NCBI GenBank assembly: GCA_963753035.1
Contig: CAVWAW010000019.1
Span: 67,152 to 131,151, forward strand
Direction: 5' to 3'
Length of the DNA: 64,000 nucleotides
DNA from: an uncultured Acidobacteriota bacterium
GTDB taxonomy: Bacteria > Acidobacteriota > Thermoanaerobaculia > Thermoanaerobaculales > Sulfomarinibacteraceae
Below the pieces are notes generated by a model, which was given only the letters and a program-made list of their open reading frames with translations, was not told the origin of the DNA and searched no databases. How positions within the stretch are numbered: the stretch's first letter is position 1; every line of letters begins with the position of its first letter. The translations under genes and the position numbers were made by a program. Positions 8,786 to 64,000 of this stretch are shown here, one piece after another.

Positions 8786-8950
8786 GGCGTCCCGCCCGCA
8801 GGATCGACTCCTGAATTGGCACCGGCCTTCTGCGCCGGGAGAGCAGACCGCATCGTGCCTCCCGAGGGAGCCCGGCAGCGCTATTGTGCGCAGGGCGTTG
8901 CGTCGCCGGGAGGTCGTTCCGGCACAATAGCGTGCCCGGCACCCCGATGT
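8786..8950 (+). repeat. S-family structured repeat, copy S4 (internal-deletion variant)
   Basis: Shares CACCGGCCTTCTG...CCGGGAGAGCAGACCGCATCG...GGGAGCCCGG...ATTGTGC...GGCACAAT...CCCGGCACCCC with 28631, 53290 and 36513 (rc). Lacks the H1/H2 hairpins, about 110 bp. Confidence 0.8.
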
Positions 8951-8998
8951 GGCGCGGTTTTCTTCGTGTCCTGGTGCGGTCTCGGATACGGATTCGGT

Positions 8999-12629: not shown

Positions 12630-14549
12630 TTACTCCGCGAGCTGATCCTCGATGCTCTGCCACTCTTCCATGAGCTTCTCGGTCTCCTTTTGGAGATCAT
12701 CGCGTTCCTGCTGCATGGCGCGGACCTTCCCCGCGTCGGTGTCCTCGAAGAAGCCCTCGCGGCAGAATGCGGCGTCGATGGCTTCGACACGCGCCTCGGC
12801 CTTTTCGACAGCGGCGGTGACGACCTCGAGTCGCAGGGTGAGGTCTTTTCGCTGTTTCGCTCGGCGTTTTTCGTCGGCGTCAGCGGTCTTGGCACCACGC
12901 GCCCCGGCGGTTTTCTTTTTCTCCCGCTTGGCCCGAAGGGTCGTGGCATCGACATCAAGGTGGTCGTCGCCGCAGTTGGCGAGGTACTCGTCGTAGGTTC
13001 CGGCGTAGTCGTTGAGTCGATCGGGGGTGATCTCGAGGATGCGGGTTGCGAGCTGGGACACGAACCAGCGATCGTGAGCGACAAAAATCAGAGTCCCGTC
13101 GTAGGCCTTCAAAGCCTTGACCAGGGCCTCGATGGCTTCGAGATCGAGGTGGTTTGTCGGTTCGTCGAGGACCAGGACGTTTGGGCGGTCAACGGCGAGC
13201 CGGGCGAAGATCAACCGCGCGGCCTCACCGCCGGAGAGGCTCGAGACCCGTTTCTCGACCTCATCGCCCGAGAAGAGCACCTTGGCGAGCTGGGCGCGGA
13301 CCCAGCCGATGGTCTGGCCGGCACAGGCGGCGCCGAGCCAACCCTCGACGGTGCCTTCTGACTCGGCGAGGAGTTCCCGGTGATCCTGGGCGAAATACCC
13401 GGGAAAGACCTGGTGCCCCCACTCGACGGCGCCGGCATCGGCCTCGAGGTGATCCATGATGATCTTGAGCAGGGTGGACTTGCCGATCCCGTTAGGTCCG
13501 ATCACAGCCAGCCGATCGCCGCGGCGGAGGTTGAGGGACACCCTGTTCAGGACCTTCTTGTCGCCAAAGGACTTGGAGATCCCCTTGATCTCGATGACCT
13601 GCTTGCCGCTCGGGCGTTGCTGCGAGACGGTGAAGACCGGGTAGCGTCTTGAGGATCGCGGAAGCGGTTCGATGACCAGTTTTTCGATCTGCTTGATCTT
13701 GCTCTGAGCCTGCCGGGCCTTGGTGTTTTTGGCCCGAAAACGATCGACAAACGACTGGCGGTTGGCGATCTCCTTCTGCCGTTTGTCGATTTCGGCCTCG
13801 CGACGTTCGCGATCACTGCGTTTGGCCTCGGTGAAGGCGGTGAAGTTCCCGGTGTAGAGGGTGACGGTCTCATAATCGACATCGAGGATGTGGGTGCAGA
13901 CGTTGTTGAGAAAGCGATGATCGTGGGAGATCACCACCGCGCAGCCTGGGAAGTCGAGGAAAAACTTCTCGAGCCACCGAATCGAGAGAATATCGAGGTG
14001 ATTGGTGGGCTCGTCGAGAAAGAGGCAGTCGGGATCGGAGGCCAGGACCCGCGCGAGCAGAACCCGAAGCTTGAATCCACCCGACAGGGTCGAGAGGGGT
14101 TGCCGGTGTTGCTCGGATGGGATCCCGAGACCCTCGAGGATCTCTCCCGATCGGGCCTCGAACGAATAGCCGTCCAGGCTGACCACGATATCCTCGAGCT
14201 CGGCATAGCGGTCGGAGTCGAACTCGGTGTCGGCGTTCTCTAAGATGGCCTCTTTCTCGGTCATGGCCTGCCAGAGCGTTGTGTGACCCATCATCACGAC
14301 ATCGATGATCGGGAGCGCCTCGAATTGGAAATGATCCTGCTCGAGAATACCGAGACGGAGTCTGCGGGGTCGGGAGACCGCGCCGGTGCTGGGCTCATCG
14401 TTCCCCGCGAGCATGCGGAGCAGCGTCGTTTTGCCCGAGCCGTTGGCGCCGACGAGCCCATAGCGTCCGCCGGGGTTGAGCTGAAAGCTCGCACCCTGGA
14501 AGAGGGTTTGGGCGCCGAAGTCCTTGCCGAGGTCGGTTGCAGTAATCAT
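12630..14549 (-). CDS. ABC-F family ATPase (two ABC domains, no TM domain)
   Basis: Two Walker A motifs (GANGSGKTT, GPNGIGKST), two LSGG signatures, an inter-domain linker and a C-terminal coiled coil. The ATG at 14549 is preferred over the GTG at 14567. Confidence 0.9.
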   Translation of the reverse strand: MITATDLGKDFGAQTLFQGASFQLNPGGRYGLVGANGSGKTTLLRMLAGNDEPSTGAVSRPRRLRLGILEQDHFQFEALPIIDVVMMGHTTLWQAMTEKEAILENADTEFDSDRYAELEDIVVSLDGYSFEARSGEILEGLGIPSEQHRQPLSTLSGGFKLRVLLARVLASDPDCLFLDEPTNHLDILSIRWLEKFFLDFPGCAVVISHDHRFLNNVCTHILDVDYETVTLYTGNFTAFTEAKRSDRERREAEIDKRQKEIANRQSFVDRFRAKNTKARQAQSKIKQIEKLVIEPLPRSSRRYPVFTVSQQRPSGKQVIEIKGISKSFGDKKVLNRVSLNLRRGDRLAVIGPNGIGKSTLLKIIMDHLEADAGAVEWGHQVFPGYFAQDHRELLAESEGTVEGWLGAACAGQTIGWVRAQLAKVLFSGDEVEKRVSSLSGGEAARLIFARLAVDRPNVLVLDEPTNHLDLEAIEALVKALKAYDGTLIFVAHDRWFVSQLATRILEITPDRLNDYAGTYDEYLANCGDDHLDVDATTLRAKREKKKTAGARGAKTADADEKRRAKQRKDLTLRLEVVTAAVEKAEARVEAIDAAFCREGFFEDTDAGKVRAMQQERDDLQKETEKLMEEWQSIEDQLAE

Positions 14550-14567
14550 CGCCGGGGGAGGATACAC

Positions 14568-14602
14568 GATGCAGGATGCAGGATGCAGGATTCAGGATGC
14601 AG
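14568..14602. repeat. Heptamer micro-array (GATGCAG)x4 plus GATTCAG
   Basis: GATGCAGGATGCAGGATGCAGGATTCAGGATGCAG lies just upstream of the ABC-F start. It is near-inverted relative to the array at 12595. Confidence 0.8.
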
Positions 14603-14653
14603 GCACATGCCATGCGTCTCAGGAGGGACCGCGGTATGATGTGAGATCAGTTC

Positions 14654-16992: not shown

Positions 16993-17033
16993 GGGTGGGA
17001 ATGATACTCGATACGAGATCCGAGATGCAGGAT

Positions 17034-18263
17034 TCAGTCCGCCAGCCGATCCCAAATCTCCGCCATGCCTTCGTGGTGATCGGCGAAGAGACGCTGCAGA
17101 TCCGGATCGAGGTGGCCTTCCGGATCCATCCTTTCGTCACCCTCGAGGATGATCTTGCGCGCCTGGTCGTGACTGAACCCGGCCTTGTACGGGCGTGCCG
17201 AGCGGAGCGCATCGTAGATGTCCGCCAGGGCGACGATCCGCGCCTCAATGGGGATCTCCTCGCCCTGCCGCCCGTTGGGATACCCGGTTCCGTCCCAGCG
17301 CTCGTGGTGGCCGAAAGCGATGGCCGCCGCCATCTGGAGCCGGTCCGAAGATTCGAGGATCTGATAGCCGAAGTAGGGGTGCCGGTTCATCTCGGCCCGT
17401 TCGTCATCGTCGAGCGGCCCATTCTTGCGGAGGACCATCCCGTCCACGCTCATCTTGCCGACATCGTGGAGCTGAGCCGAGTATCGGATCTCGTCGCAGA
17501 ATATCGTGGGCATCCCGCACGTCTGGGCGATGAAGTAGGAATACTCATTGACCCGCAGGACATGGGACGCGGTGGCAGTGTCGTGGACCTCGGCTGCACG
17601 AGCGAGGAGGTTGATGGAGAGTTGGAACGCCTCTTCGGTTTCCTCGTGCAGGGCGGCGATCTTCGCCCTCTGCTCGGCCAGGGTCTTGTTGCGATCGCGA
17701 AGCCTGACGTTCTGCGCCTTGATTCGCCCGAGCATCTCGGCACGTTCGATGGCGCTGCCGACGATGTGGTTGACCGGGACGATAAGGCCCGCCTGCTCTT
17801 CACCAAATTCCAGCGGTCGATCGACCCCGTCGGTTCTCCGATTGATGAGCTGGACCACGCCAACGACGTTGCGGTCGTAGTTGAGCAGCGGAAAGGAAAG
17901 CATGGAACGGCTGTGATACCCGTGCCGCTTGTCGAATCGGCGATCAAACGTGTAGGGGACGCTGAGGGGAAGATCATAAAGATCCTCGACGAAAACGGTC
18001 TCTCCGGTGGTGGCGGTGAATCCGGCGATGGAGGAGGGGGTCATGGGTACGACGAACGAAGCGGGTTTCACGGCGATGACGTCATTCTGCGAGTCAGCCG
18101 CCTCGAGCCGCCGGCTGCGCCCGCGACCGCGGACGATGAAGATCGTGCCGGCTTCCGCCCCCGTGAGTTCGCGGCTCTTGAGGAGCACGCGGTGCATCAG
18201 CTTTTCGACGGACTCCGGCTTCGACGACTCGATGAACTCGAGGAATTCTCTGAGTGCGTCCAT
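17034..18263 (-). CDS. GAF-domain HD-GYP c-di-GMP phosphodiesterase
   Basis: HDVGK and HHERWDGTGYPNG motifs with an N-terminal GAF-like domain. Start at 18263 has a GGAGA RBS. Confidence 0.85.
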   Translation of the reverse strand: MDALREFLEFIESSKPESVEKLMHRVLLKSRELTGAEAGTIFIVRGRGRSRRLEAADSQNDVIAVKPASFVVPMTPSSIAGFTATTGETVFVEDLYDLPLSVPYTFDRRFDKRHGYHSRSMLSFPLLNYDRNVVGVVQLINRRTDGVDRPLEFGEEQAGLIVPVNHIVGSAIERAEMLGRIKAQNVRLRDRNKTLAEQRAKIAALHEETEEAFQLSINLLARAAEVHDTATASHVLRVNEYSYFIAQTCGMPTIFCDEIRYSAQLHDVGKMSVDGMVLRKNGPLDDDERAEMNRHPYFGYQILESSDRLQMAAAIAFGHHERWDGTGYPNGRQGEEIPIEARIVALADIYDALRSARPYKAGFSHDQARKIILEGDERMDPEGHLDPDLQRLFADHHEGMAEIWDRLAD

Positions 18264-18319: not shown

Positions 18320-18930
18320 GTCGTCGCAGGGTTGAACCGCCAAGACGCAAGAGTCGCAAAGCATCGCAGAAAACAACGCAGAGACGCAGAGGCGCAGAGA
18401 CGCAGAGGTCGGGTCCATCGGTGACGACGGTGTTTTCGTGTTCATCGTCGCCAGCCGGCCGGTCGGTTGCCCTCGTCCAAGGGCCGAGGACCCATGATTC
18501 GAGGTTTCCGAATCAGAAACGCGGCATTTCTGATTCGGAAACCTCGAATCATGGATCGCGCCTACGGCACGACCGCCCGGCCTCCGAGACGTGAATGGTG
18601 TCGTTTCGTCTCAGGGCATCCATTGAAGCCGATGGTGGACGGCCTACATATCTCAAGAATGTGGACAAGGAGCGAGACCCAGGTGGAGCCGACGCGCCGT
18701 AGGCGCGGCGTGCCTGTGAATTGTCTGGGCTGGACGAACGCTGGCGGGCGGATCGCCCAGACAATTCGCAGGTGGTGGCGGTCCGACCGACACCGACTCC
18801 ACCGCCATCATCGGCTGCGATGGATTGCGATGTCTCTGCGCCTCTGCGCCTCTGCGTTATTTATTGCGATGGCGCGACGTTGCGATGACCTCGCGTCCCT
18901 TGCGTCCTTGCGGTTCAAGAGTGATGTTCC
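18320..18930 (+). repeat. E600 element copy A: ORF-less, hairpin-rich element of about 600 bp with long inverted arms (MITE-like or ncRNA)
   Basis: Left arm GTTGAACCGCCAAGACGCAAG...(CGCAGAGR)x4 at 18331-18408. Mirrored right arm ending CTTGCGTCCTTGCGGTTCAAG at 18828-18919. Alignable by eye to 60792-61398 (rc) and 63509-end. Boundaries +/-15 bp. Confidence 0.8.
18493..18553. other. Perfect 27-bp stem / 7-nt loop hairpin (E600 H1)
   Basis: CATGATTCGAGGTTTCCGAATCAGAAA cgcggca TTTCTGATTCGGAAACCTCGAATCATG. Confidence 0.95.
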
Positions 18931-28478: not shown

Positions 28479-28630
28479 TCGATTGTCTCCATGCTGAGAA
28501 ATTCCGCCTTGGCGGAGTGCGTATGGTACCGGATTCTCGGGAGCGTTGGCCACCCCCGCCGGCGCTTTGGGTGGTGTAGCGACAGCCATCCTGGCTGTCG
28601 ACGGTGACGTGCCAGCGCACTGTCGCCGTC

Positions 28631-28890
28631 CCGGAACCTGCGTTCATCCCCGGCCTTCTGGGCCGCTGTGACGTTGTCCCAGCCGACCAGCGTCGCGCCA
28701 TCGGCGTGGTCGCACGTCGGTTGATTTAGAGGGCTGCGACCACGCCGATGGCACGCCGGCGGCCTGCTTCGTAGCCGGGAGAGCAGACCGCATCGCGCTC
28801 CCCTAGGGAGCCCGGTTGGACATTGTGCGAGGAGCGCCGCGATGCCTGGAGGCCGATCCGGCACAATGTCGAACCCGGCACCCCGGTGGA
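28631..28890 (+). repeat. S-family structured repeat, copy S1 (about 260 bp, four hairpins)
   Basis: Near-identical blocks with 53290-53550 and rc of 36513-36780. A 17-bp stem 28697-28713/28736-28752 and a 10-bp stem GACATTGTGC/GCACAATGTC 28819-28828/28861-28870. Confidence 0.85.
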
Positions 28891-28979
28891 GCGGGATTCT
28901 CCGCGTGCCCTGGACGGCTCCGGGCGCTGCCACGGACCCGCATGGTAGACTCCGTCCGTTTCAGGAGGGTGTTGCACAG

Positions 28980-32995: not shown

Positions 32996-33120
32996 CTCCT
33001 GCGACGACTTCGTGCAACCTTCGTGGATTTGTGTCTTCGTGTTTGCGACGGTGTGATGTCTCTGTGATCCATTTGCGATGTCTGCGATGCTTTGCGTCCC
33101 TTGCGCCCTGGCGATTCAAC
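32996..33120. repeat. Solo E600-type arm (CGCA/GTG word array ending GGCGATTCAAC)
   Basis: GCGATGTCTGCGATGCTTTGCGTCCCTTGCGCCCTGGCGATTCAAC resembles the right arms at 18828-18919, 61300-61386 and 42770-42826. Confidence 0.6.
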
Positions 33121-33191
33121 TTCGCTCCGAGAAACGCGCTAGAATACGCCGCATCGCCGTCCGGGCGATTCCGACCACTGGAGCCCCGAAA

Positions 33192-36032: not shown

Positions 36033-36280
36033 GCGCCTTCTGGCGGGTTGTTGCCTATCCGGCCCGCCTCTACAAGAGGTTCATTTCACCCTATATGCCC
36101 CCGGCGTGCCGGTTCGAACCGACCTGTTCGGTCTATGCAGCCGAGGCCATCGAGAGCCACGGGCTCTACGGCGTCTGGTTGGCGGTGGTGCGGATCCTCA
36201 AGTGCCAGCCGTTCCATTCGGGTGGCTACGATCCCGTGCCGCCCCGGAAGGGTGATATGGGTTCGACGCCATCGGATTGA
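36029..36280 (+). CDS. yidD: Membrane protein insertion efficiency factor YidD
   Basis: [31 protein letters not shown]...[13 protein letters not shown]. The GTG start overlaps the ileS stop (GTGA). Confidence 0.85.
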
Positions 36281-36297
36281 GCCGCTCGGGCGCGAGG

Positions 36298-36359
36298 ACA
36301 TCGCAATCATCGCAATTCAACGCAGAGGCGCAAAGTCGCAGAGGCGCAGAGACATCGCA
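36298..36359. repeat. Solo E600-type arm (CATCGCA / CGCAGAGG words)
   Basis: ACATCGCAATCATCGCAATTCAACGCAGAGGCGCAAAGTCGCAGAGGCGCAGAGACATCGCA. Confidence 0.6.
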
Positions 36360-36462
36360 TTTGAGAGTGGGCGAGGTGTTGCGTGGAGGCCGTCAGACAA
36401 CGTGGTGGCGCGCCTCCGAGCGGGAGGAGTCTGTAGGTGGGCCCAGGCCCACCCTACGTGCT
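36359..36462 (+). repeat. Q module (contains a GTAGGTGGGCCCAGGCCCACCCTAC hairpin)
   Basis: Alignable by eye to rc of 44202-44305. Shared blocks are CGTAGGGTGGGCCTGGGCCCACCT and CCACTCTCAAATG. Confidence 0.65.
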
Positions 36463-36512: not shown

Positions 36513-36780
36513 CCCCATCGGGCGTGCCGGGTTTGACATTGTGCCGGAACGACCACACGGCCCCGCGTCGCTCCCCGCACAATGTCATACCGGGCTCCCC
36601 CGGGGAGCGCGATGCGGTTTGCTGTTCCGGCTCCGAGGCAGGCCGCCGGCGTGCCATCGGCGTGGTCGCAGCCCTCACAATCAACCTACGCGCGACCACG
36701 CCGATGGTGCGACGCTGGGTCGCTGGGACGCCAAAGCGTCACAGCGGCCCAGAAGGCCGGTGACGAGATCAGCGTCCGGG
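36513..36780 (-). repeat. S-family structured repeat, copy S3 (inverted)
   Basis: The rc aligns block for block with S1 and S2, including the GCCATCGGCGTGGTCGC/GCGACCACGCCGATGGC stem and the GACATTGTGCCGG/CCGCACAATGTC stem. Confidence 0.85.
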
Positions 36781-36833
36781 GCAGCGTCAGGATCAACATC
36801 AGTTGACAGCCGGACGGGAGTGGGCGACTGTTC

Positions 36834-36926
36834 GCTGCCGCTGCCGCTGCCGCTGCCGCTGCCGCTGCCGCTGCCGCTGCCGCTGCCGCTGCCGCTGCCG
36901 CCGCTGCCGCCGCCGCTGCCGCTGCC
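36834..36926. repeat. Hexanucleotide microsatellite (GCTGCC)n
   Basis: About 11 perfect GCTGCC units, then degenerate GCC/GCTGCC units. Ends 8 nt from the stop of the 36934-38913 gene. Confidence 0.95.
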
Positions 36927-36933
36927 CCGGCCG

Positions 36934-38913
36934 TCAGTCGCGCTTCGGGGGGTACTCCAACCCGTACTCGGCGAGGATCGCCGCCGCGAGGTTTTTGAGC
37001 TCGGTGGCCTCTTTCTTCAGCGGCCTCGAGGTCAGGAGGATCCCCGGGACGCTTTCGTGATCCATGCAATGGTCACCGCTCCAACGGTCGGTGTTGTCGG
37101 TGAGGACCTGCGGAAGGATCTCGCCGATGGCCGACTCGTCAGATCCCCGGGTTCCCCTGGCGTAGCCGACCTGGATGTCGGGTCCGATGTGGAGATAGCC
37201 GCCGTCGGTGTAGGTCGCCTCGCGGAGATAGACCTTGGAGATCGCGGGTTTGCCGGTTGTGGGATCGATCACCCGACGGAGTTTGTCGGAAACCTCCGCA
37301 AGGAGGCGATCCCGATCTTTAGGATCGACGATGCCGCCCTTTTCCCGACCGCTGAGATTGAGATAGAGGCCGTTGATGCCGAGGCCATAGGCGCGGGTCT
37401 TGGACCAGTCGACGTTTGAGTAGTACTCACCGGCTTTGTCGGGATCCTTGAGTGAAAGGTAACCGTTCTCCTTGAGCCAGGTGTTGAGGTGGAACGCGCG
37501 CCGCCATGGTGAGAATCCGTGATCGGACATCACCACCAGGAGGGTGTCTTCGGGCATGTGCTCCAGGGTGTAGCCCACAACCTTGTCCATCTTCTCGTAG
37601 AGTTCGGGCATAACCCCCGCGTACTTGGGATCTATTTCGGGGTCGTAGGCCGGGTGGTCGGGGTCCATGGCCCGCCAGATGATGTGCCCGACCAGGTCGG
37701 TGTTGCCGAAATAGTGGAAGAGCAGACCCTCGTCGAACTCATCGAGGACGAACTTGAATTGTTCAATGTTCTCATCGCCGGCGATCTTTGCCTGGGCGAG
37801 GAACTCATCGACTGTCAGGACCCCTGCCTTGGCCGCCCCGGTGTCCTCCGGCATGCCCTGGGTGAAGAAATAGCCCGTGCACTTGCACAAATGCTTGGCA
37901 TAGGAGTTCGGGGTCGAGATCGGCATGATCGGGGCCGTCGGGTCGATGTTGAGCGGTGAAACATAGAGTTCGAAGTGGGGTTTCACCGCACGCAAATAGA
38001 AACGGGCGATGGCCGGGAGCGCCTGGGTCGGGATCAGTTCGAAGGAAACGGGGACCCACTCGCTCCAGCCTCCCGCCTCGAGAATGAACGCCTCGTCCCC
38101 GATGACGAACTTCGCGGCGTTGGTCTGTTCATCGACATAGACCGTCATCTCTGCGGACACCCGGGTGGGCTTGAGGAGGAACGGATTGTCGGGTCCGAGG
38201 AGCCTTGCGTCGATCCGCCCGTTCCTGGCTTCCACTTGAAAGACATCACCGCCGTTGACGCTCTCGGTGCCGGGAGCGAACGGGTCGGAGGTGTAGAGAG
38301 AAAAAGTCCCGTAGGTGCCCAGTACATCGGGCGTCCCCATCCCGCTCAATTCACGCCCGGCGGTGCCGGACGGGGGAAAATTCGCCGGCATTTTGATGAT
38401 GGTTGTCGGAACTCCGTGTTCTTCGAGAACCGTCCAGAACGAGTTTCCTTTCCGCAGGAGTTCGACCGAGCCGGGGTCGAAGAACGAAGGGATCTGCCAT
38501 TTCCCGAGACTCCACATGGTTCCCGGTCTGGCGATACTGGTCGACAGGTACGGCGTCATGGTTTTCGGGTCGCGGTGGATGAAATCAAAAATCCCGTGGC
38601 CTCCGGCATCGGTCCCGGAAATGAAGTCCGACCAGGCAACCGGGCTCTGAGGTGGGATGGAAGTGCCGAGGGAAGCAAACCCCCCTGAATCGGCTAGTTT
38701 CTTGAACGACGGCAACCGGCCCGCCTCGATCATCTTGGCCGTCAATTCATAGTCCATGCCGTCAAAGCCGAGGATGATCACATTCGGTTTGTCGCTGCCG
38801 CCGTTTTCGCCTTCAACTACATCGGCCTGGAGTGGAAGACCGACTCCGAGCGCGAGAATGGCGAGCAGTGCCAGTGACAACAGAGCGAGTGTCAGTTTCA
38901 AAGGGGTTCGCAT
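36934..38913 (-). CDS. Secreted alkaline-phosphatase-family protein (type I phosphodiesterase/nucleotide pyrophosphatase-like)
   Basis: Signal peptide. NVIILGFDGMDYE metal site. IPPQSPVAWSDFISGTDAGGHGIFDF nucleophile region. VVMSDHGF. Confidence 0.8.
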   Translation of the reverse strand: MRTPLKLTLALLSLALLAILALGVGLPLQADVVEGENGGSDKPNVIILGFDGMDYELTAKMIEAGRLPSFKKLADSGGFASLGTSIPPQSPVAWSDFISGTDAGGHGIFDFIHRDPKTMTPYLSTSIARPGTMWSLGKWQIPSFFDPGSVELLRKGNSFWTVLEEHGVPTTIIKMPANFPPSGTAGRELSGMGTPDVLGTYGTFSLYTSDPFAPGTESVNGGDVFQVEARNGRIDARLLGPDNPFLLKPTRVSAEMTVYVDEQTNAAKFVIGDEAFILEAGGWSEWVPVSFELIPTQALPAIARFYLRAVKPHFELYVSPLNIDPTAPIMPISTPNSYAKHLCKCTGYFFTQGMPEDTGAAKAGVLTVDEFLAQAKIAGDENIEQFKFVLDEFDEGLLFHYFGNTDLVGHIIWRAMDPDHPAYDPEIDPKYAGVMPELYEKMDKVVGYTLEHMPEDTLLVVMSDHGFSPWRRAFHLNTWLKENGYLSLKDPDKAGEYYSNVDWSKTRAYGLGINGLYLNLSGREKGGIVDPKDRDRLLAEVSDKLRRVIDPTTGKPAISKVYLREATYTDGGYLHIGPDIQVGYARGTRGSDESAIGEILPQVLTDNTDRWSGDHCMDHESVPGILLTSRPLKKEATELKNLAAAILAEYGLEYPPKRD

Positions 38914-42588: not shown

Positions 42589-42662
42589 GGGCGTCTCCTT
42601 TGTCTTCAAGATTCTCGCCCGGATCGGCGGAAAAGCAAACCTCGCCGGGCTCCATCGAGAGG

Positions 42663-42830
42663 ACCAGGATGAACCGCAAGGGCGCAATGGACACTAGGCA
42701 TCGCAACGTCGCAAACACGAAGACGCGAAGACGCGAAGATATCGCACACCAAGACATCGCGATCATTGGCTGCGATGTCTGCGATGTCTGCGATGCGTTG
42801 CGTCCCTTGCGTCCTTGCGGTTCAACTCTA
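42663..42830. repeat. Mini-E600: left and right arms abutted, with no internal region
   Basis: GAACCGCAAGGGCGCAATGG...(CGCGAAGA)x2... mirrored by ...GCGATGTCTGCGATGTCTGCGATGCGTTGCGTCCCTTGCGTCCTTGCGGTTCAAC. The right end is 1 nt from the TAG of the 42828 gene. Confidence 0.75.
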
Positions 42831-44201: not shown

Positions 44202-44305
44202 CGTAGGGTGGGCCTGGGCCCACCTTCAGGTCCAATCCGGTTGGAAAAACGCCGCCACGAAGTCAGCCAACGTCCACGCTGCGTCCGATCCACTCTCAAA
44301 TGTGA
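44202..44305 (-). repeat. Q module, inverted copy
   Basis: CGTAGGGTGGGCCTGGGCCCACCTTCAGG...CCACTCTCAAATGTGATGTCT aligns with rc of 36359-36462. Confidence 0.65.
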
Positions 44306-44445
44306 TGTCTTGGCGCTTCTTTGCGATGGATGATCTTTGTGATTCAACCCTGCGATGTTGCGACGTATCTGCGGCAATCTGCGTCATCTGCGGGCAACCT
44401 GCGATGGCGCGATGGAATCCGTGTCCATCTGTGTGATCAGTGGGT
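44299..44445. repeat. Solo E600-type arm, CGCAGAT/CTGCGAT word variant
   Basis: ...GATTCAACCCTGCGATGTTGCGACGTATCTGCGGCAATCTGCGTCATCTGCGGGCAACCTGCGATGGCGCGATGGAATCCGTGTCCATCTGTGTGATC. The rc aligns with 53196-53275. Confidence 0.6.
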
Positions 44446-45805: not shown

Positions 45806-45918
45806 CGTCGATCTCCTCCCTCGTTGGCACGATGGGTGCCGAATGAGTATACGGGGGCTTCGATGACGGGTTTGGACGAATACGGGTAGGATGAGAGGTC
45901 AAGTGTGAATTATGAATT

Positions 45919-46030
45919 CGGAGTGAGGAGTGAGGAGTGAGGAGTGAGGAGTGAGGTAGTCAGAAGGTGGGGACGTCGCTCCGTTTTACCTCCTAACCTT
46001 CTAACTTTCTGACCTTCTAACCTCCTCACC
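45919..46030. repeat. GTGAGG-word palindrome G1
   Basis: (GAGTGAG)x5 GTAGTCAGAAGGTGG ... CCTCCTAACCTTCTAACTTTCTGACCTTCTAACCTCCTCACCCC. The arms are imperfect reverse complements. Confidence 0.75.
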
Positions 46031-53195: not shown

Positions 53196-53275
53196 GCAGA
53201 GAGGCAGCCCACAGATCACACGGATAAACACAGATGACATCGCATTCCATCGCAGATTGCCCGCAGATGCCGCTG
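53196..53275. repeat. Solo E600-type arm, CACAGAT/CGCAGAT word variant
   Basis: CCCACAGATCACACGGATAAACACAGATGACATCGCATTCCATCGCAGATTGCCCGCAGATGCCGC aligns with rc of 44340-44440. Confidence 0.6.
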
Positions 53276-53289
53276 CTGCGGTCACGGTC

Positions 53290-53550
53290 ACGGAACCTGC
53301 CCTCATCGCCGGCCTTCTGGACCGCTGGGACGTTGTCCCAGCGGTCCAGCGTCGTGCCATCGGCGTGGTCGCTCGTGGGTTGATTGTGAGGGCTGCGACC
53401 ACGCCGATGGCACGCCGGCGGCCTGCCTCGTTGCCGGGAGAGCAGACCGCATCGCGCTCCCCGCGGGAGCCCGGTTAGAGATTGTGCGGGGAGCGCCGCG
53501 AAGCCTGGAGGTCGATCCGGCACAATGTCAAACCCGGCACGCCCGGTGGA
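53290..53550 (+). repeat. S-family structured repeat, copy S2
   Basis: Perfect 13-bp hairpin 53319-53347 (GGACCGCTGGGAC gtt GTCCCAGCGGTCC) and a 20-bp stem 53353-53372/53395-53414. Blocks shared with S1, S3 and S4. Confidence 0.85.
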
Positions 53551-53590
53551 GGCGCGGTCCGCGGGTTCTGTAGAGGTCGTGGGTACGGTC

Positions 53591-53657
53591 GCTGCCGCTG
53601 CCGCTGCCGCTGCCGCTGCTGCTGCTGCTGCTGCCACTGCCACTGTCACGGTCACGG
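53591..53657. repeat. Hexamer/trimer microsatellite (GCTGCC)4 (GCT)5 (GCCACT)2 GTCACGGTCACGG
   Basis: Directly readable. Ends 26 nt upstream of the ATG at 53683. GGTCACGGTCACGG also occurs at 53280-53293, on the other side of S2. Confidence 0.9.
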
Positions 53658-53682
53658 GGTGGGGAGCCGCTACACTGTTCCG

Positions 53683-55285: not shown

Positions 55286-55420
55286 GTGAGAGGTCAGGAG
55301 TGAGGAGTTAGGGGTCAAGGGTTAGGGGGTTACGATTTCTCCCCACCCCTCACCCCTCACCCCTCACCCCTCACTCCTCACTCCTCTTCACGTCTCACAT
55401 TCTCACCTTTTCACGTTCTC
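55286..55420. repeat. GTGAGG-word palindrome G3
   Basis: GTGAGAGGTCAGGAGTGAGGAGTTAGGGGTCAAGGGTTAGGGGG ttacgatttct CCCCACCCCTCACCCCTCACCCCTCACCCCTCACTCCTCACTCCTC.... Starts 4 nt after the traB/gumN stop. Confidence 0.8.
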
Positions 55421-59543: not shown

Positions 59544-60791
59544 ATGAGAACAGCGATCGTTGCGGCGATCGGGGCGCTCCTCGTCGGTCCGGCGACGCCG
59601 TTCGCGAAATCCGACACCGATCGGCTGCACTACTTCGCGGTCAACGGCAGCGGTGTTCTGAGCTCGGCCAAGGCCGATCTGCCGGTGAACCCGGCGTCGG
59701 TGGTCAAAATCGCAACGACGTTGTGGGCCCTCGCTGAACTCGAGGCCGGTCATCGCTTCACCACCTCGATCGGGTATCTCGGAAGCTGGGACCCATCCTC
59801 GGGCGTTTTGGTCGGCGATCTTGTGATCCGCGGAGGGGACGACCCGGATTTCCAGTGGGAAAACGCCTTCCTCGTGGCGCGTGAGCTCAACCGGCTCGGC
59901 CTGCGCCGAGTGGAGGGCCGGGTTCTGGTTCAGGGACGATTCTGGCTTGGCTGGGAGCACGGGGTGGAAAAACGGGTGACCGATCCGACCCAATTGGCTG
60001 AGAAGATGGGCCGCAGGCTCATCGGCACCCTGGATCCGGTCAGGTGGACCCGCTCCCAGCTCAATACCTGGAAGGCGCTGTGCGAGCGGCGTGGTTGGGA
60101 CATCACGCGCAGGCCGCAGGTGAAAGTCACCGGAGGGGCGCGTTTTGACACGCTGCGCGACGCAACGCCGATGCTCGTCCACCGCTCGAACCCACTCGAA
60201 GTCATCATGCGGCGCTTCAACGTCTACTCCAACAACGACATCGTCCGAGTGGCGGACGGGATCGGCACGCTGGACGAGTTCGAGGCCTTCGTCACCCGGC
60301 GTCTCGGTGTCGAACCGGGTCGGATCGAGCTCGAGACGGCGTCGGGTGAGCGCCGCAACCGGATGACCGTGCAGCAGATGGCGGGTCTTCTGACCGAGCT
60401 CGATATCGAGGCCGAAGAACAGGGGCTCGAGGTCCAGAAGTTGCTGCCCGTTCTCGGCTGCGACCCCGGCCACACAAGACGGATGTTTCCCGCTTTGGCC
60501 GAGCCCGAGTTCGCGGGGGCGGTGACCTGCAAGACGGGGACCTTGACCCATACCGATGGCGGGGTGGCGGTCCTGGCGGGGATCTTCACCAGTCCGACCA
60601 ACGGACCGGTGGTCTTCGCCATCGCCGCGCCCGGGGCCGGCGGTAAGCTCGACTACTGGCGGATGATCCAACAGCGGTGGATCCTCGACCTCATCGCCGA
60701 GTCGGGCGGGGCGGTGACGACACCCTGCGGCGATCCGCTGCCGTTCTCCGACACCTTCGCCGAGATCGAGGTCGTCGCCGGCGGAGAATAA
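59544..60791 (+). CDS. dacB: D-alanyl-D-alanine carboxypeptidase/endopeptidase, PBP4 (S13) family
   Basis: SxxK (PASVVK), SxN (YSNND) and KTG (CKTGTL) motifs, plus GDLVIRGGDDPDF. Trimmed to the Met at 59544. Confidence 0.85.
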   Translation: MRTAIVAAIGALLVGPATPFAKSDTDRLHYFAVNGSGVLSSAKADLPVNPASVVKIATTLWALAELEAGHRFTTSIGYLGSWDPSSGVLVGDLVIRGGDDPDFQWENAFLVARELNRLGLRRVEGRVLVQGRFWLGWEHGVEKRVTDPTQLAEKMGRRLIGTLDPVRWTRSQLNTWKALCERRGWDITRRPQVKVTGGARFDTLRDATPMLVHRSNPLEVIMRRFNVYSNNDIVRVADGIGTLDEFEAFVTRRLGVEPGRIELETASGERRNRMTVQQMAGLLTELDIEAEEQGLEVQKLLPVLGCDPGHTRRMFPALAEPEFAGAVTCKTGTLTHTDGGVAVLAGIFTSPTNGPVVFAIAAPGAGGKLDYWRMIQQRWILDLIAESGGAVTTPCGDPLPFSDTFAEIEVVAGGE

Positions 60792-61398
60792 CGCAGAGCC
60801 GCAGAGGCGCAGAGACATCGCACATCGCAGTTTCACCGCAAAGACGCCAGGAACGCCAAGACCATCGCAACCGATGATCGCGGTGGAGTCGGTGTCGGTC
60901 GGACCGCCACCACTGCTGCTTCATGTGCTCGCATCGAACGCGGCGTTCGTGACGAGCACATGAAGCAGCAGCTCGCCGCGCCTACGGCGCGCCGGCTCCG
61001 CCTGGGTTTCGCTCTCCATCAACTCTATCCAAATGAGGGACCTCGATCTGGAGGAGATCCAATACCCAAGAAGCTGTGGAGGCAGGATGGTCGTGCTGAA
61101 AGCACGATCCGAGACTCGTGAGATCAGATTCCGAAACGCCGCGCTTCGGAATCTGATCTCACGGGTCTTGGGTCCTCGGCCCCGGGACGAGGGCCACCGT
61201 CCGGCCGGTTGACGATCACGAACACGGTTTGGCCGAGGTCGGTACCGGGCCCGATCCGTGTTCATCCACCGAATCAGTGACCATCCGTGTCCCATTGCGA
61301 TGATGCGATGTCTCTGCGTCTCCGCGTCTCTGCGTCTCTGCGTTGAACTGCGATGTCTTGGCGATCTTGGCGTCGTTGCGGTTCAACCCGTGATGTGA
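60792..61398 (-). repeat. E600 element copy B (inverted relative to copy A)
   Basis: Begins right after the dacB stop with CGCAGAGCCGCAGAGGCGCAGAGACATCGCA. The right arm ends GTTGCGGTTCAAC at 61386. Hairpins at 60913-60971 (19-bp stem) and 61113-61167 (23-bp stem). Confidence 0.8.
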
Positions 61399-61408
61399 CG
61401 GCGCTGAG

Positions 61409-62425
61409 CTATGCCACGCACCAGAAGGTATTGCCTTCGTCGAGGTCGAGTTCGACCAGCCGCGTTCTGATAAGGTTCCTCGCTCCCCGTGACGCCACCG
61501 CCGCGATGACGACGGTGTCGCCGTCGAGATGCGCGGGGAGATCATCGGGCGAGATCACGTTGATCCTCCGCAGGGTGCCGCCGATTTTTCTCGGGTCGAT
61601 GTCCACGACTGCGGCGATCTCGACACCCTCCTCCATGAGAAATTTGGACAGCCTCCGGCCGGTCTGGCCGGCGCCCCAGAGAATGACCTTTGAGAAAGAA
61701 GCCAAGGGACCGCGGGCGAGAAAATGAGCTTTGCAGCGCAGGAAGCTCGGCACCGAGTAGCGGGTGTCGGTGCGGGTGAGTCGATCGTCGTGCTCCCGCC
61801 AGAAGAAGAGCGGACGATCGATCTTTTCGAAGATCACACCGGCCGCGAAACAACGCAGCCAGAGGTCGTAGTCTTCGGCCCATCCCGGATCACGCCAACC
61901 ACCGATCTCGGTGAGGACCTCGCGGCGAACCATCACCGACGGGTGGGCGACGGGTGATTCGATGAACCGCTCGCGTTTGATCTCGTCATGGGTCACGAGC
62001 GAATTCAACCATTCCTCGTAGAGGCGGAAGCCCATGGCCACGCAGCGCGACGGAAAATGGCGCACCAGGCAGGACACGACTCCGACCTCGGGCTGGTCGG
62101 CGAAACGGGCGGCCTGGAGTTCGAGCCGTTTCGGATGGCTGATGTCATCGGCGTCCATCCTCGCCACCAGCGGCGCCCGGCAGTGTTCGAAACCGCGATT
62201 GAGAGCGGCGACCAGCCCCTCGGCCGGTTGGTGAACCACGGTAAAACGTGGGTCCCGATCCGCCCAGGTATCGAGGAGAGCCCCGCTGTCATCGTCGGAT
62301 CCGTCGTCCACGGCGATGACCTCGAAGTCGGTCAGCGACTGGTGGGCCAGGCTGGCGAGACCGGCCTCGAGCCACCGGCCGCCGTTGCGAACCGGGAGGA
62401 GCACGGAAACCATCGGGGTAGTCAT
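61409..62425 (-). CDS. Family 2 glycosyltransferase with a C-terminal Rossmann-like domain
   Basis: VSVLLPVRNG, VIAVDDGSDD and the DxD motif in RMDADDIS. The C-terminus has VILWGAGQTGRRL. Trimmed to the Met at 62425. Confidence 0.8.
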   Translation of the reverse strand: MTTPMVSVLLPVRNGGRWLEAGLASLAHQSLTDFEVIAVDDGSDDDSGALLDTWADRDPRFTVVHQPAEGLVAALNRGFEHCRAPLVARMDADDISHPKRLELQAARFADQPEVGVVSCLVRHFPSRCVAMGFRLYEEWLNSLVTHDEIKRERFIESPVAHPSVMVRREVLTEIGGWRDPGWAEDYDLWLRCFAAGVIFEKIDRPLFFWREHDDRLTRTDTRYSVPSFLRCKAHFLARGPLASFSKVILWGAGQTGRRLSKFLMEEGVEIAAVVDIDPRKIGGTLRRINVISPDDLPAHLDGDTVVIAAVASRGARNLIRTRLVELDLDEGNTFWCVA

Positions 62426-62466
62426 GGCGCACCGACTATAGCGCCGGCCCGCGCAACTGTGGTTCA

Positions 62467-63507
62467 ATGGCCCGCCGAACAATGCTGTATCCACTTTCCC
62501 GCGCCGCCCTCTTCAAGCTCGAGCCCGAGACCGCCCACGCCGTATCTCTCGCCGCCATCGCCAAAGCGGGAGCCGTGCCTCCCGTGCGGGCAGCACTTGC
62601 CGCGTGTTTCTGTGTGCCCGATGCCGAACCGGTCGAGGCCTTCGGGTTGACCTTTCCAAACCGGGTCGGGCTTGCCGCCGGTTATGACAAGGATGGCGAA
62701 GGATGGCGTGGTCTGGCCACCCTGGGCTTCGGCCACGTCGAAGTTGGGACGGTGACTCCGCTGCCACAGCCGGGAAACCCGAAACCGCGGGTCTTCCGTT
62801 TGGTCGACCGGCGGTCGGTGATCAACAGAATGGGATTCCCGGGACGCGGCGCGGCCTATGTCGCCGATCAGCTTCGCAAACCCGGTCCGCCCGGGCTGAT
62901 TCTCGGGGTCAACATCGGCAAACAAAAGGACACCGCCCTCGAGGATGCGGCGGGCGACTACGAAGAACTCATGGAGGTCTTCGCCCCGTTGGCCGATTAC
63001 CTCGCCGTCAACATCTCGTCGCCCAATACCCCCGGGCTGAGGCAGCTCCAGGAACGGTCGTTCCTCGGCGCGCTGCTCGGTCGACTCGCCGCCAAACAGG
63101 CTTTGCTGGCGGATGGGACCGGAAAACGGGTGCCGGTACTGGTCAAACTCGCGCCCGATCTCGATCCCGACCAGCTCCGGACGGCTGTCGACTGCGTGGT
63201 CGAATCGGGGCTCGACGGGATCATCGCCACCAACACGACGATCTCGAGAGACGGTGTCGATGGGCATCCTCTATCCTTCGAGGAGGGTGGGCTCAGTGGT
63301 GCGACCCTCACCGAGATGAGCACCCGGATCATCGCCGCCATCGCCGAGCACCTCGACGGAGCACTGCCCATCATCGGTGTCGGGGGCATCATGTCTCCCG
63401 ATGACGCGCGCGCCAAGCTCGACGCCGGCGCCACCCTGTTGCAGGTCTACACCGGGATGATCTACGAGGGCCCCGGTCTGGTGAAGCGGATCCTCAAGGC
63501 GCTCTGA
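62467..63507 (+). CDS. pyrD: Dihydroorotate dehydrogenase (quinone), class 2
   Basis: FPNRVGLAAGYDKDG, NISSPNTPGLR, IIATNTT and GVGGI. The start could be the Met at 62482. Confidence 0.95.
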   Translation: MARRTMLYPLSRAALFKLEPETAHAVSLAAIAKAGAVPPVRAALAACFCVPDAEPVEAFGLTFPNRVGLAAGYDKDGEGWRGLATLGFGHVEVGTVTPLPQPGNPKPRVFRLVDRRSVINRMGFPGRGAAYVADQLRKPGPPGLILGVNIGKQKDTALEDAAGDYEELMEVFAPLADYLAVNISSPNTPGLRQLQERSFLGALLGRLAAKQALLADGTGKRVPVLVKLAPDLDPDQLRTAVDCVVESGLDGIIATNTTISRDGVDGHPLSFEEGGLSGATLTEMSTRIIAAIAEHLDGALPIIGVGGIMSPDDARAKLDAGATLLQVYTGMIYEGPGLVKRILKAL

Positions 63508-63508
63508 A

Positions 63509-64000
63509 TCCATCGCAGGGTCGAACCGCAAATACGCGAAGTTCGCAAAGCATCGCTGCGTCGCACCATCGCAAAGATCTAACGCAGAGACGCAGAGACG
63601 CAGAGACATCGCACCATCGCAATGGGACACGGATCGACACGGATGTGGCGGATCGGCACGGATCGGGCCCAGTTCCAATCTCGGCTAACTCGGTCTCGGG
63701 GTCGTCAACCGGCCGGACGGTTGCCCTCGTCCAAGGGCCGAGGACCCATGACCCGTGAGATCCGATTTCCAAACGCGGCGCTTGAAAATCGGATCTCACG
63801 GGTCATGGATCGTACCTACGGCACGACCGTCCGGCCTCCAGAGATTGAGGGGGCAGGTCCGACGCTGCCAGAAATCTGTCGCCCCGTCAGAGAATTTGGG
63901 ATGGGTTCAATAGTACTTTTCGCCTACCTCAGCGTCAGCCCTATTCGATCGGGAGTCGAACCCCAGTACAGATAGAGCGCCTTGCCCGAAATCAACTCGG
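63509..64000 (+). repeat. E600 element copy C (same orientation as A; truncated by the window edge)
   Basis: Left arm GGTCGAACCGCAAATACGCGAAG...(CGCAGAGA)x3 follows the pyrD stop. The hairpin at 63747-63807 has a stem of about 26 bp. Flanking blocks are shared with copies A and B. Confidence 0.8.

Follow-up and report, generated by a model that had tools for sequence, protein, structure and literature searches.

E600, a probable MITE/REPIN-like structured repeat with two covarying four-way-junction modules in uncultured Acidobacteriota

The 64-kb stretch of DNA analysed here (contig CAVWAW010000019.1; hereafter the window, in whose coordinates positions are given) comes from an uncultured Acidobacteriota bacterium of soil or sediment, near Thermoanaerobaculales, and holds three copies of an intergenic repeat referred to as E600. 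Copy B (60792-61398) shares its conserved blocks with copies A and C (Table 1) and lies in the opposite orientation to both, according to the inverted-repeat listing and the alignment; strands are designated B+ and B- relative to this copy. E600 is likely a non-coding, non-autonomous and lineage-restricted structured interspersed repeat, similar to MITEs (miniature inverted-repeat transposable elements) and REPINs and foldback-like in its build, whose copies diverge by compensatory substitution and by inter-copy exchange. The observations that carry this reading are a fold, its covariation, the strand polarity of its two halves, a multi-copy and lineage-restricted distribution, the turnover of copies at orthologous loci, and an inversion between two of the copies. 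Each module of the element, when single-stranded, would fold into a four-way junction in which H1 or H2 is the longest arm. The fold, the junction helices and the loops would be conserved, and the long stems would need only to pair, drifting by ordinary compensatory substitution through G·U intermediates. Recombination between copies would add further differences, through exchange of whole modules and, in one relative, through inversion of the segment between copies B and C. The stem differences would thus be due to structural constraint together with recombination, and not to a role of the stem as an address or guide.

The region of copy B is predicted to fold with energies of -222 and -230 kcal/mol on its two strands (z = -7.6 and -8.1 relative to shuffled sequences). 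Its conserved core comprises two modules of near-constant length (128-129 nt and 133-135 nt), each with a four-way junction as its consensus fold and almost no unpaired junction bases; the longest arm is H2 in module 1 and H1 in module 2. In alignments of 15 copies (module 1) and 17 copies (module 2), standard pairs occupy 95.3% and 96.8% of the pair cells, respectively, and 38 base pairs (17 + 21) are changed on both sides. The observed covariation score was reached by none of 500 column shuffles, and pairing falls to 31-45% when the partner columns are slid. Most of the covariation resides in H1 and H2, and it is present as well in P1, P1′ and P2′, the strands of P1 and P1′ being separated by ~110 nt.

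A first-pass annotation of this DNA had proposed that the hairpin stems change faster than their flanks while both arms change together, and that the hairpin may be selected as a structure. All of these proposals are borne out, the first by mean pairwise identities of 61% for the H2 stem and 77-81% for the H1 stem, compared with 88-98% for adjacent and other helices (among which the value for P4′ is inflated because the P4′ block served as the search pattern), the second by the doubly changed pairs and shuffles given above, and the third by the covariation, the G·U intermediates and the covariation of long-range helices that lie beyond the reach of a local palindrome mechanism. Between copies A and B the disparity is starker, the H2 stem being 42% identical and helix P2 100% identical. 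The three conserved blocks that the annotation reported, with copy B inverted relative to copy A, are present in the sequence at their coordinates, although, since the copies outside the window were searched for with the GCCCTCGTCC..GGGCCGAGGACCC block, its conservation there is overstated. The reported H1 arms are likewise in place (18493, 63747 and the reverse complement of 61145-61167), as is the perfect 19-bp H2 stem of copy B (60913-60931/60953-60971). The claim that the copies carry different stem sequences holds in that the stems do differ from copy to copy, but the H1 variants are homologous to one another and stand apart at ~20 base pairs, 20 being the number of variable pairs in H1.

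The H2 stems fall into three deep types (Table 1) separated by many co-segregating pairs, and to this extent the clonal subfamilies that the annotation had considered as a trivial source of the pattern do exist; they are not devoid of independent events, however, because further compensated changes occur inside each type, as at pair 43/90, which is C-G, A-U or U-A within type II. All four allele combinations are found in 16 of 120 variable-pair combinations in H2 and in 5 of 164 in H1, a sign of recurrent change or of recombination.

The two long stems differ in the strand on which wobble pairs are tolerated. Counted on the strand equivalent to B+, the non-Watson-Crick cells of H1 comprise 82 G·U and 6 A·C over all copies (42 and 6 in the 17-copy alignment; 17 and 5 as columns), while those of H2 comprise 3 G·U and 17 A·C (0 and 11 in the 15-copy alignment; 0 and 8 as columns). 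The contrast in polarity between H1 and H2 gives a Fisher p of 3e-12 on the all-copy counts, the cells of which are not independent. Wobble intermediates are therefore those of B+ in H1 and those of B- in H2. Terminal inverted repeats are also present, with ~85% arm-to-arm complementarity when all copies are aligned, in copy A as in copy B, and their mismatches have no wobble bias (35 G·U, 30 A·C and 66 others over all copies); a dyad-symmetric element would give such counts whatever the cause.

A covariance model built on module 2 (R1) recovers module 1 from all full copies, each time on the opposite strand. With filters off, its score against module 1 of copy B is 55.1 bits for the minus strand and 40.6 bits for the plus strand. 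Against module 2 of the same copy, the scores are 142.9 bits (plus) and 60.2 bits (minus). When placed in opposite orientation, the modules share a GTA triloop hairpin (CGYGCC-GTA-GGCRCG) and the hairpin tip ACGCCGCG. These covariance-model scores, taken with the two loop motifs and the polarity of the wobble pairs, make E600 a probable head-to-head inverted pair: its modules would be related, and the constraint on each would fall on the strand that has its 3′ end outward. A single RNA spanning the whole core on B+, which the G·U bias of H1 had first suggested, was rejected in view of the opposite bias of H2 and the orientation of the covariance-model match.

Judging by the wobble polarity, each half of E600 appears to be used as a single strand with an outward 3′ end, which would confine the possible mechanisms, divergent transcripts being one and strand-specific processing of each end the other. 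The conserved G·U pairs and the GNRA-like variants of the P2′ loop are points in favour of RNA as the folded strand. Points in favour of single-stranded DNA (ssDNA) are the C-GNA-G triloop, a classic stable DNA mini-hairpin, and the dyad-symmetric use of the strands, which would be natural for the processing of ends. Opposite wobble polarity of this kind is readable from sequence alone and could be applied to other repeat families.

The distribution of E600 was surveyed by one scan each of genome and metagenome collections, with the conserved block next to H1 as the query. This yielded 18 true copies, located in three uncultured Acidobacteriota metagenome-assembled genomes (MAGs; Microflora Danica bins) and several metagenome contigs. 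Orthologous loci reached through two flanking proteins added ~10 sites, for a total of ~30 copies outside the window, and the flanking proteins have homologues, 67-79% identical, that carry the label Thermoanaerobaculales. In the collections scanned, these ~30 copies are confined to Acidobacteriota MAGs and to soil and sediment metagenomes; viral, plasmid and phage collections returned none. All copies are intergenic, mostly between convergent genes, and the adjoining genes (Peptidase_S13, GT2 glycosyltransferase, PyrD, ribosomal protein L33, an HD-GYP protein and topoisomerase I) are housekeeping genes without an effector among them. No consistent open reading frame is shared by the copies, whose stop-free stretches vary in frame, strand and length; GGAGG-N4-ATG at 61078-61087 is peculiar to copy B. 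At the gathering threshold, Rfam 15 has no match in the window, and in E-value mode it returned just sub-threshold generic matches to microRNA (miRNA) hairpins and a 13-bit fragment of Acido-Lenti-1.

Comparison of orthologous loci (numbered with the prefix L) reveals extensive turnover. At the B site, L025 has the core, as does the window; L019 and L022 (~91% DNA identity) are down to ~210 bp of arrays and a remnant of the tail, and in L023 (~84% DNA identity) ~75 bp are left between the two termini. At the A site, the window has an intact element, which L031 matches in centre and H2 type but with two internal deletions. L012 has lost H2 and is left with a decayed H1; the H1 of L029, too, is decayed and carries non-wobble mismatches; in L032 and L033, the interval from the rpmG terminator to the HD-GYP promoter region is filled by other array-bearing sequences. 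The reverse situation occurs at the 33-kb site, where the remnant in the window (33019-33121) corresponds to a full element in L018. Orthologous sites without a core still carry arrays or other array elements. The junctions of the two deletions in L031 (L031:2690-2960) lie at the short direct repeats GAC and GATTC, one deletion taking most of H2 and the other extending from the start of H1 through to flanking DNA, and this ortholog of copy A clearly exemplifies microhomology-mediated decay.

The neighbourhood of copies B and C has also been rearranged. Relative to the window, L019, L022, L023 and L026, the metagenome contig L025 (4894-7608) has a segment of ~2.7 kb in inverted orientation. This segment is equivalent to 60863-63532 of the window and carries pyrD and the GT2 glycosyltransferase gene as well as the B core; its breakpoints fall at copies B and C. 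A further rearrangement of this neighbourhood is seen in L027. Exchange of the B/C type would explain why nominally orthologous elements differ in H2 type (type II in copy B, type I in L025). Orthologous H1 stems (C compared with L023, B compared with L025) differ by doubly compensated pairs and by single changes, all of which give G·U on the sense strand, and these compensated differences at resident orthologs suggest either constraint in place or conversion from intact copies. A different palindromic repeat (…CTGTCATTCTGAGCGAACGAGTCCGCGAGCGAGTCGAAGAATCC…) is inserted in the centre of E600 in L015 (7900-8200) and in the C-site element of L023 (4005-4400), and the same repeat is also listed at L015:2700-2760; the centre thus tolerates insertions of 230-300 bp. 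Through such deletions, nested insertions and the B/C inversion, these elements reshape their genomes, a matter of consequence for MAG assembly and synteny analysis.

The turnover bears directly on the possibility that E600 copies are host-beneficial RNA elements, retained locus by locus as 3′-end, terminator or insulator structures or as outward antisense transcripts. Such a role would suit the way in which copies abut stop codons within 0-20 nt in their mostly convergent settings, the compensated and wobble-only changes among orthologous H1 copies, and the pyrimidine-rich arrays on the 3′ side of the sense strands. It nevertheless seems unlikely, given that, at the A site as at the B site, most orthologous lineages have a decayed core or none, that scans of copies A and B found neither a sigma-70-like promoter, the centre included, nor an intrinsic terminator, that the centre accepts nested insertions, and that the sense strand of each module is antisense to the read-through transcript of the adjacent gene. 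Core loss, decay and replacement at orthologous sites indicate that the copies are not conserved host genes.

A different account dispenses with selection on folding and invokes palindrome maintenance at the DNA level, with intrastrand template switching, or the correction of quasi-palindromes, carrying changes over from either arm to its partner. The first-pass annotation had offered such template switching as one cause of the concerted changes, and several features are in keeping with it: the arms are just 3-25 nt apart, the H2 alignment is without one-sided (wobble) states and holds double changes only, and H1 of copy A is flawless despite being strongly diverged, with a matched 2-nt insertion in both arms. 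Correction should, however, be blind to the type of mismatch, and the mismatch spectrum is strand-specific and opposite in H1 and H2. Compensated changes occur in P1, P1′ and P2′ as well, even though the strands of P1 and P1′ are so far apart. Conserved G·U pairs in module 2 also persist uncorrected (97/117 in 17 of 17 copies, 40/88 in 11 of 17), and the decaying copies in L012 and L029 gather uncorrected mismatches. As the principal cause, template switching is accordingly quite improbable, and it is not needed; because the mismatch preference and the ~110-nt covariation are observed, the main cause would be selection on a single-stranded fold. It may still be that template switching helps to perfect individual stems, for which H1 of copy A is the best candidate.

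The other cause put forward in that annotation, in which the stem is a copy-specific address (a guide RNA, a site of ssDNA recognition or the precursor of a small duplex RNA) read by an effector, has very little likelihood. The stems do vary between conserved loops and flanks, and the hairpins do look like long, perfect substrates of the miRNA-precursor kind, for all that Rfam returned just generic, sub-threshold matches. The variable bases, however, are locked in near-perfect duplexes of 19-30 bp with no exposed segment, no stem match of at least 16 nt (one mismatch allowed) was found in a small search space made up of the rest of the window and ~190 kb of related loci without the elements themselves, no effector is found among the adjoining housekeeping genes, copies decay, vanish or are replaced at orthologous sites, and the variants are homologous drift states joined by G·U intermediates rather than unrelated spacers. 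It is barely conceivable that each module is single-stranded on its own sense strand, through outward transcription or as ssDNA, that an enzyme processes or reads H1 and H2, and that the variable duplex is the address. Equally remote is the corollary that this address takes the form of a small duplex RNA, or of a tag matching the element to a partner or target. If true, E600 would be a new kind of programmable mobile element.

To return to E600 as a MITE/REPIN-like repeat, its fold would be required for whatever propagates or preserves the element, and the object of selection would be the lineage in which the element propagates, not a function for the host. The agent of its putative mobility could be a transposase acting on the termini or an enzyme acting on ssDNA that resembles the HUH-type tyrosine transposases associated with repetitive extragenic palindromic (REP) sequences, known as RAYTs. 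Several points weigh against this interpretation. The similarity between the modules is weak, a global sequence alignment of one with the other being not significant in either orientation, and the inverted-pair arrangement draws on the covariance-model scores, the two loop motifs and the wobble polarity. One conserved U·G in P1 (on the B+ strand) departs from the polarity, unless it is equivalent to the mismatch site of P1′. The sample is small, and its copies are related to one another. In the DNA examined, a transposase with matching termini was not found, and a tblastn search with E. coli RayT against the window and all loci (278 kb, a tiny share of the genomes) gave nothing below E = 2.9. 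No direct repeat that would mark a target-site duplication is evident at the termini, and no clean empty site was found. Finally, a purely selfish element without conversion would not show compensated differences between orthologous resident copies.

Outside the two modules, the arms of the element are inverted arrays of 7-9-nt tandem units (CGCAGAG, CATCGCA, CACGAAG, CACGGAT and others) that end in TTGAACCGC/GCGGTTCAA. The outer array of copy B begins directly after the stop codon of the upstream Peptidase_S13 gene (60789-60791), and this TAA sits within the array motif AATAACGCAGAG, which recurs at the inner edge of the arrays in other copies. The same outer array is found at the orthologous site of L023, with the same arrangement, and repeat-derived sequence thus supplies, or overlaps with, the end of the Peptidase_S13 gene. 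On the other side, the right terminus of copy B is ~20 nt from the stop codon (61409) of the convergent glycosyltransferase gene. Copy A is located between the rpmG terminator and the HD-GYP gene. Copy C diverges past the centre and is then cut off by the end of the window; as the L023 ortholog shows, the ancestral element here was a dimer.

Table 1. Parts of E600 in the window, related features, and membership of the H2 types
Feature	Position	Strand	Basis or remarks
Copy A, full element, inverted relative to B	18320-18925		module 2 at 18452-18586 (sense -); module 1 at 18677-18805
Remnant	33019-33121	none	right-hand arrays and terminus only
Mini-element	42661-42827	none	terminal inverted repeats and arrays only, without modules
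Copy B, outer tandem array	60792-60829	none	CGCAGAG x3, CATCGCA x2
Copy B, left terminal inverted repeat (GTTTCACCGCAAAGACGCCAGGAACGCCAAGACCATCGCA)	60830-60869	none	~34/40 bases complementary to 61349-61387
Copy B, module 1, four-way junction	60880-61007	- (probable sense)	consensus fold, pair counts
Copy B, module 1 helices	P1 60882-60890/60994-61002; P2 60891-60911; H2 60913-60971 (tip 60935-60949); P4 60972-60991		
Copy B, variable centre between modules	61008-61076	none	poorly alignable across subfamilies; nested insertions of 230-300 bp in copies of relatives (L015, L023)
Copy B, module 2, four-way junction	61077-61211	+ (sense)	consensus fold, wobble counts, covariance model
Copy B, module 2 helices	P1′ 61081-61091/61196-61206; P2′ 61092-61106; H1 61109-61171; P4′ 61172-61194		
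Copy B, tail with small hairpin (GCCGAGGTCGG) and conserved GGGCCCGATC	61212-61256	+	alignment, fold
Copy B, right-hand tandem arrays	61257-61348	none	ATCCGTG-type, TGCGATG, TCTGCGTC x4; complement of left-hand array types
Copy B, right terminal inverted repeat (...CGTCGTTGCGGTTCAAC)	61349-61387	none	sequence reading, repeat listing
Copy C, arrays and module 2	63513 to ~63884	-	module 2 at 63706-63840, sense on minus strand
H2 type I			L001, L002, L004, L007, L010, L025
H2 type I′			A, L011, L003
H2 type II			B, both L005 copies, L014, L015, L018, L020/L021

Other repeats populate the same genome. Intergenic tandem arrays of 7-9-nt units (GATGCAGG, GGAGTGA, CGCAGAG, CATCGCA, CACGAAG, CACAGAT, CACGGAT), often in inverted pairs, are abundant in it and in its relatives, as at 14541-14626, 16997-17054, 45909-45970 and 55286-55384 of the window, at L012:4330-4560 and at L032:2860-2940. 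The units turn over between relatives: L012 has a CACGAAG array where copy A has CGCAGAG, and ~200 bp of other arrays where the window, at 14.5 kb, has its GATGCAGG array. A different repeat family is represented by two inverted units, 36273-36460 and 44202-44345, which lie 7.7 kb apart and bracket five ordinary genes; in each, a core containing a GGTGGGCC-TG-GGCCCACC hairpin is accompanied, on a single side, by arrays like those of E600. Another family, of ~290 bp and with copies 75-90% identical, is found at 8827-8974, 28620-28913, 36515-36795 (inverted) and 53274-53572, as well as in L012 and L018, and it adjoins long runs of GCTGCC/GCCGCT hexamers at 36.8 kb (36818-36963) and 53.6 kb (53557-53678); a further hexamer run lies at 1444-1572. 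Past copy C, the minus strand of 63940-64000 contains a T-arm-like string (GGGGTTCGACTCCC), for which ARAGORN reports no tRNA, possibly owing to the end of the window, and the tRNA scan of the window as a whole found none.

E600 can be compared with several known systems, although a literature search found nothing specific on it or on the repeats of its lineage. Retron, group II intron, attC, tRNA-like short interspersed element (SINE) and telomere-like readings were dropped for want of an adjacent reverse transcriptase or integrase, of defining motifs or of a fitting context. The attC site of integrons is an imperfect hairpin of 57-141 bp with R and L boxes and extrahelical bases, situated at cassette boundaries near an integrase. 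Neither H1 nor H2 is flanked by the R′/R′′ consensus (GTTRRRY / RYYYAAC), and there is no cassette array and no integrase nearby. In contrast to CRISPR, omega RNA and bridge RNA systems, E600 has no exposed variable segment, no adjacent effector and no target matches in the small space searched. Eukaryotic foldback (FB) transposons have long inverted termini made of short tandem sub-repeats and undergo frequent internal deletions and rearrangements; they are without conserved internal junction folds and are unrelated to E600 in sequence and host.

Among bacterial repeats, E600 resembles classical MITEs in having terminal inverted repeats and no coding capacity and in being multi-copy and intergenic. 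Correia/nemis, ERIC and Chunjie elements are non-coding MITEs with terminal inverted repeats and stable predicted folds, intergenic and often at gene 3′ ends (PMC3184786). Unlike the classical elements, which fold by pairing of one terminal inverted repeat with the other, E600 has folds that are internal, covarying multi-helix junctions. Its phylum is shared by the families of inverted repeats that accompany the RAYT-like "TIRYT" transposases of Terriglobus, Koribacter, Acidobacterium and Granulicella; these families comprise moderately abundant long inverted repeats, some of them double palindromes, which IS200/IS605-type tyrosine transposases are thought to mobilise (PMC3733652). Compared by description and not by sequence, they are a lead only.

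The first-pass annotation had stated that neither of its two causes had been described for an element of this kind, yet compensatory evolution of repeat hairpins has precedents in REPINs and in bcr1. The latter, from the Bacillus cereus group, is an intergenic repeat of MITE-like type. At the RNA level its cruciform-like structure is maintained through compensatory changes, its genomic distribution is not conserved, and some copies have lost the structure (PMC3184786). It differs from E600 in its length of ~155 bp, its two stem-loops, its 5-bp direct repeats and its known transcription, and the two are not related in sequence; E600 is four times larger and has two four-way junctions.

In REPINs, compensatory changes that preserve the hairpin occur in parts needed only for pairing (PMC3116915). 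E600, too, consists of two inverted units, each self-folding and jointly forming a larger foldback, and both kinds of element are intergenic, multi-copy and lineage-restricted, leave singlets or truncated copies as remnants, and have units with opposite-strand logic. REPINs, whose mobility is due to RAYT tyrosine (HUH) transposases, have been proposed to adopt an alternative "clover" fold. The differences are nonetheless considerable. E600 measures ~600 bp as opposed to ~100 bp, its units are four-way junctions of 128-135 nt rather than palindromes of 20-40 nt with a terminal GTAG (or CGTC) tag, and its ends are tandem arrays of 7-9-nt units. GTAG occurs in E600 only inside the P2′ loop (CCGTAGG), and in three copies GAAA, GGAA or AGAA takes its place. 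Because its units are not of the 20-40-nt, GTAG-tagged kind, and because neither a target-site duplication nor a clean empty site was found, E600 is not filed as a member of either the MITEs or the REP/REPIN class. Set beside these systems, E600 would be an unusually elaborate structured bacterial repeat, with two inverted four-way-junction modules that differ in the strand under constraint; this contrast in polarity between the halves and the doubled junction are its most notable features, in a host lineage that is poorly studied.

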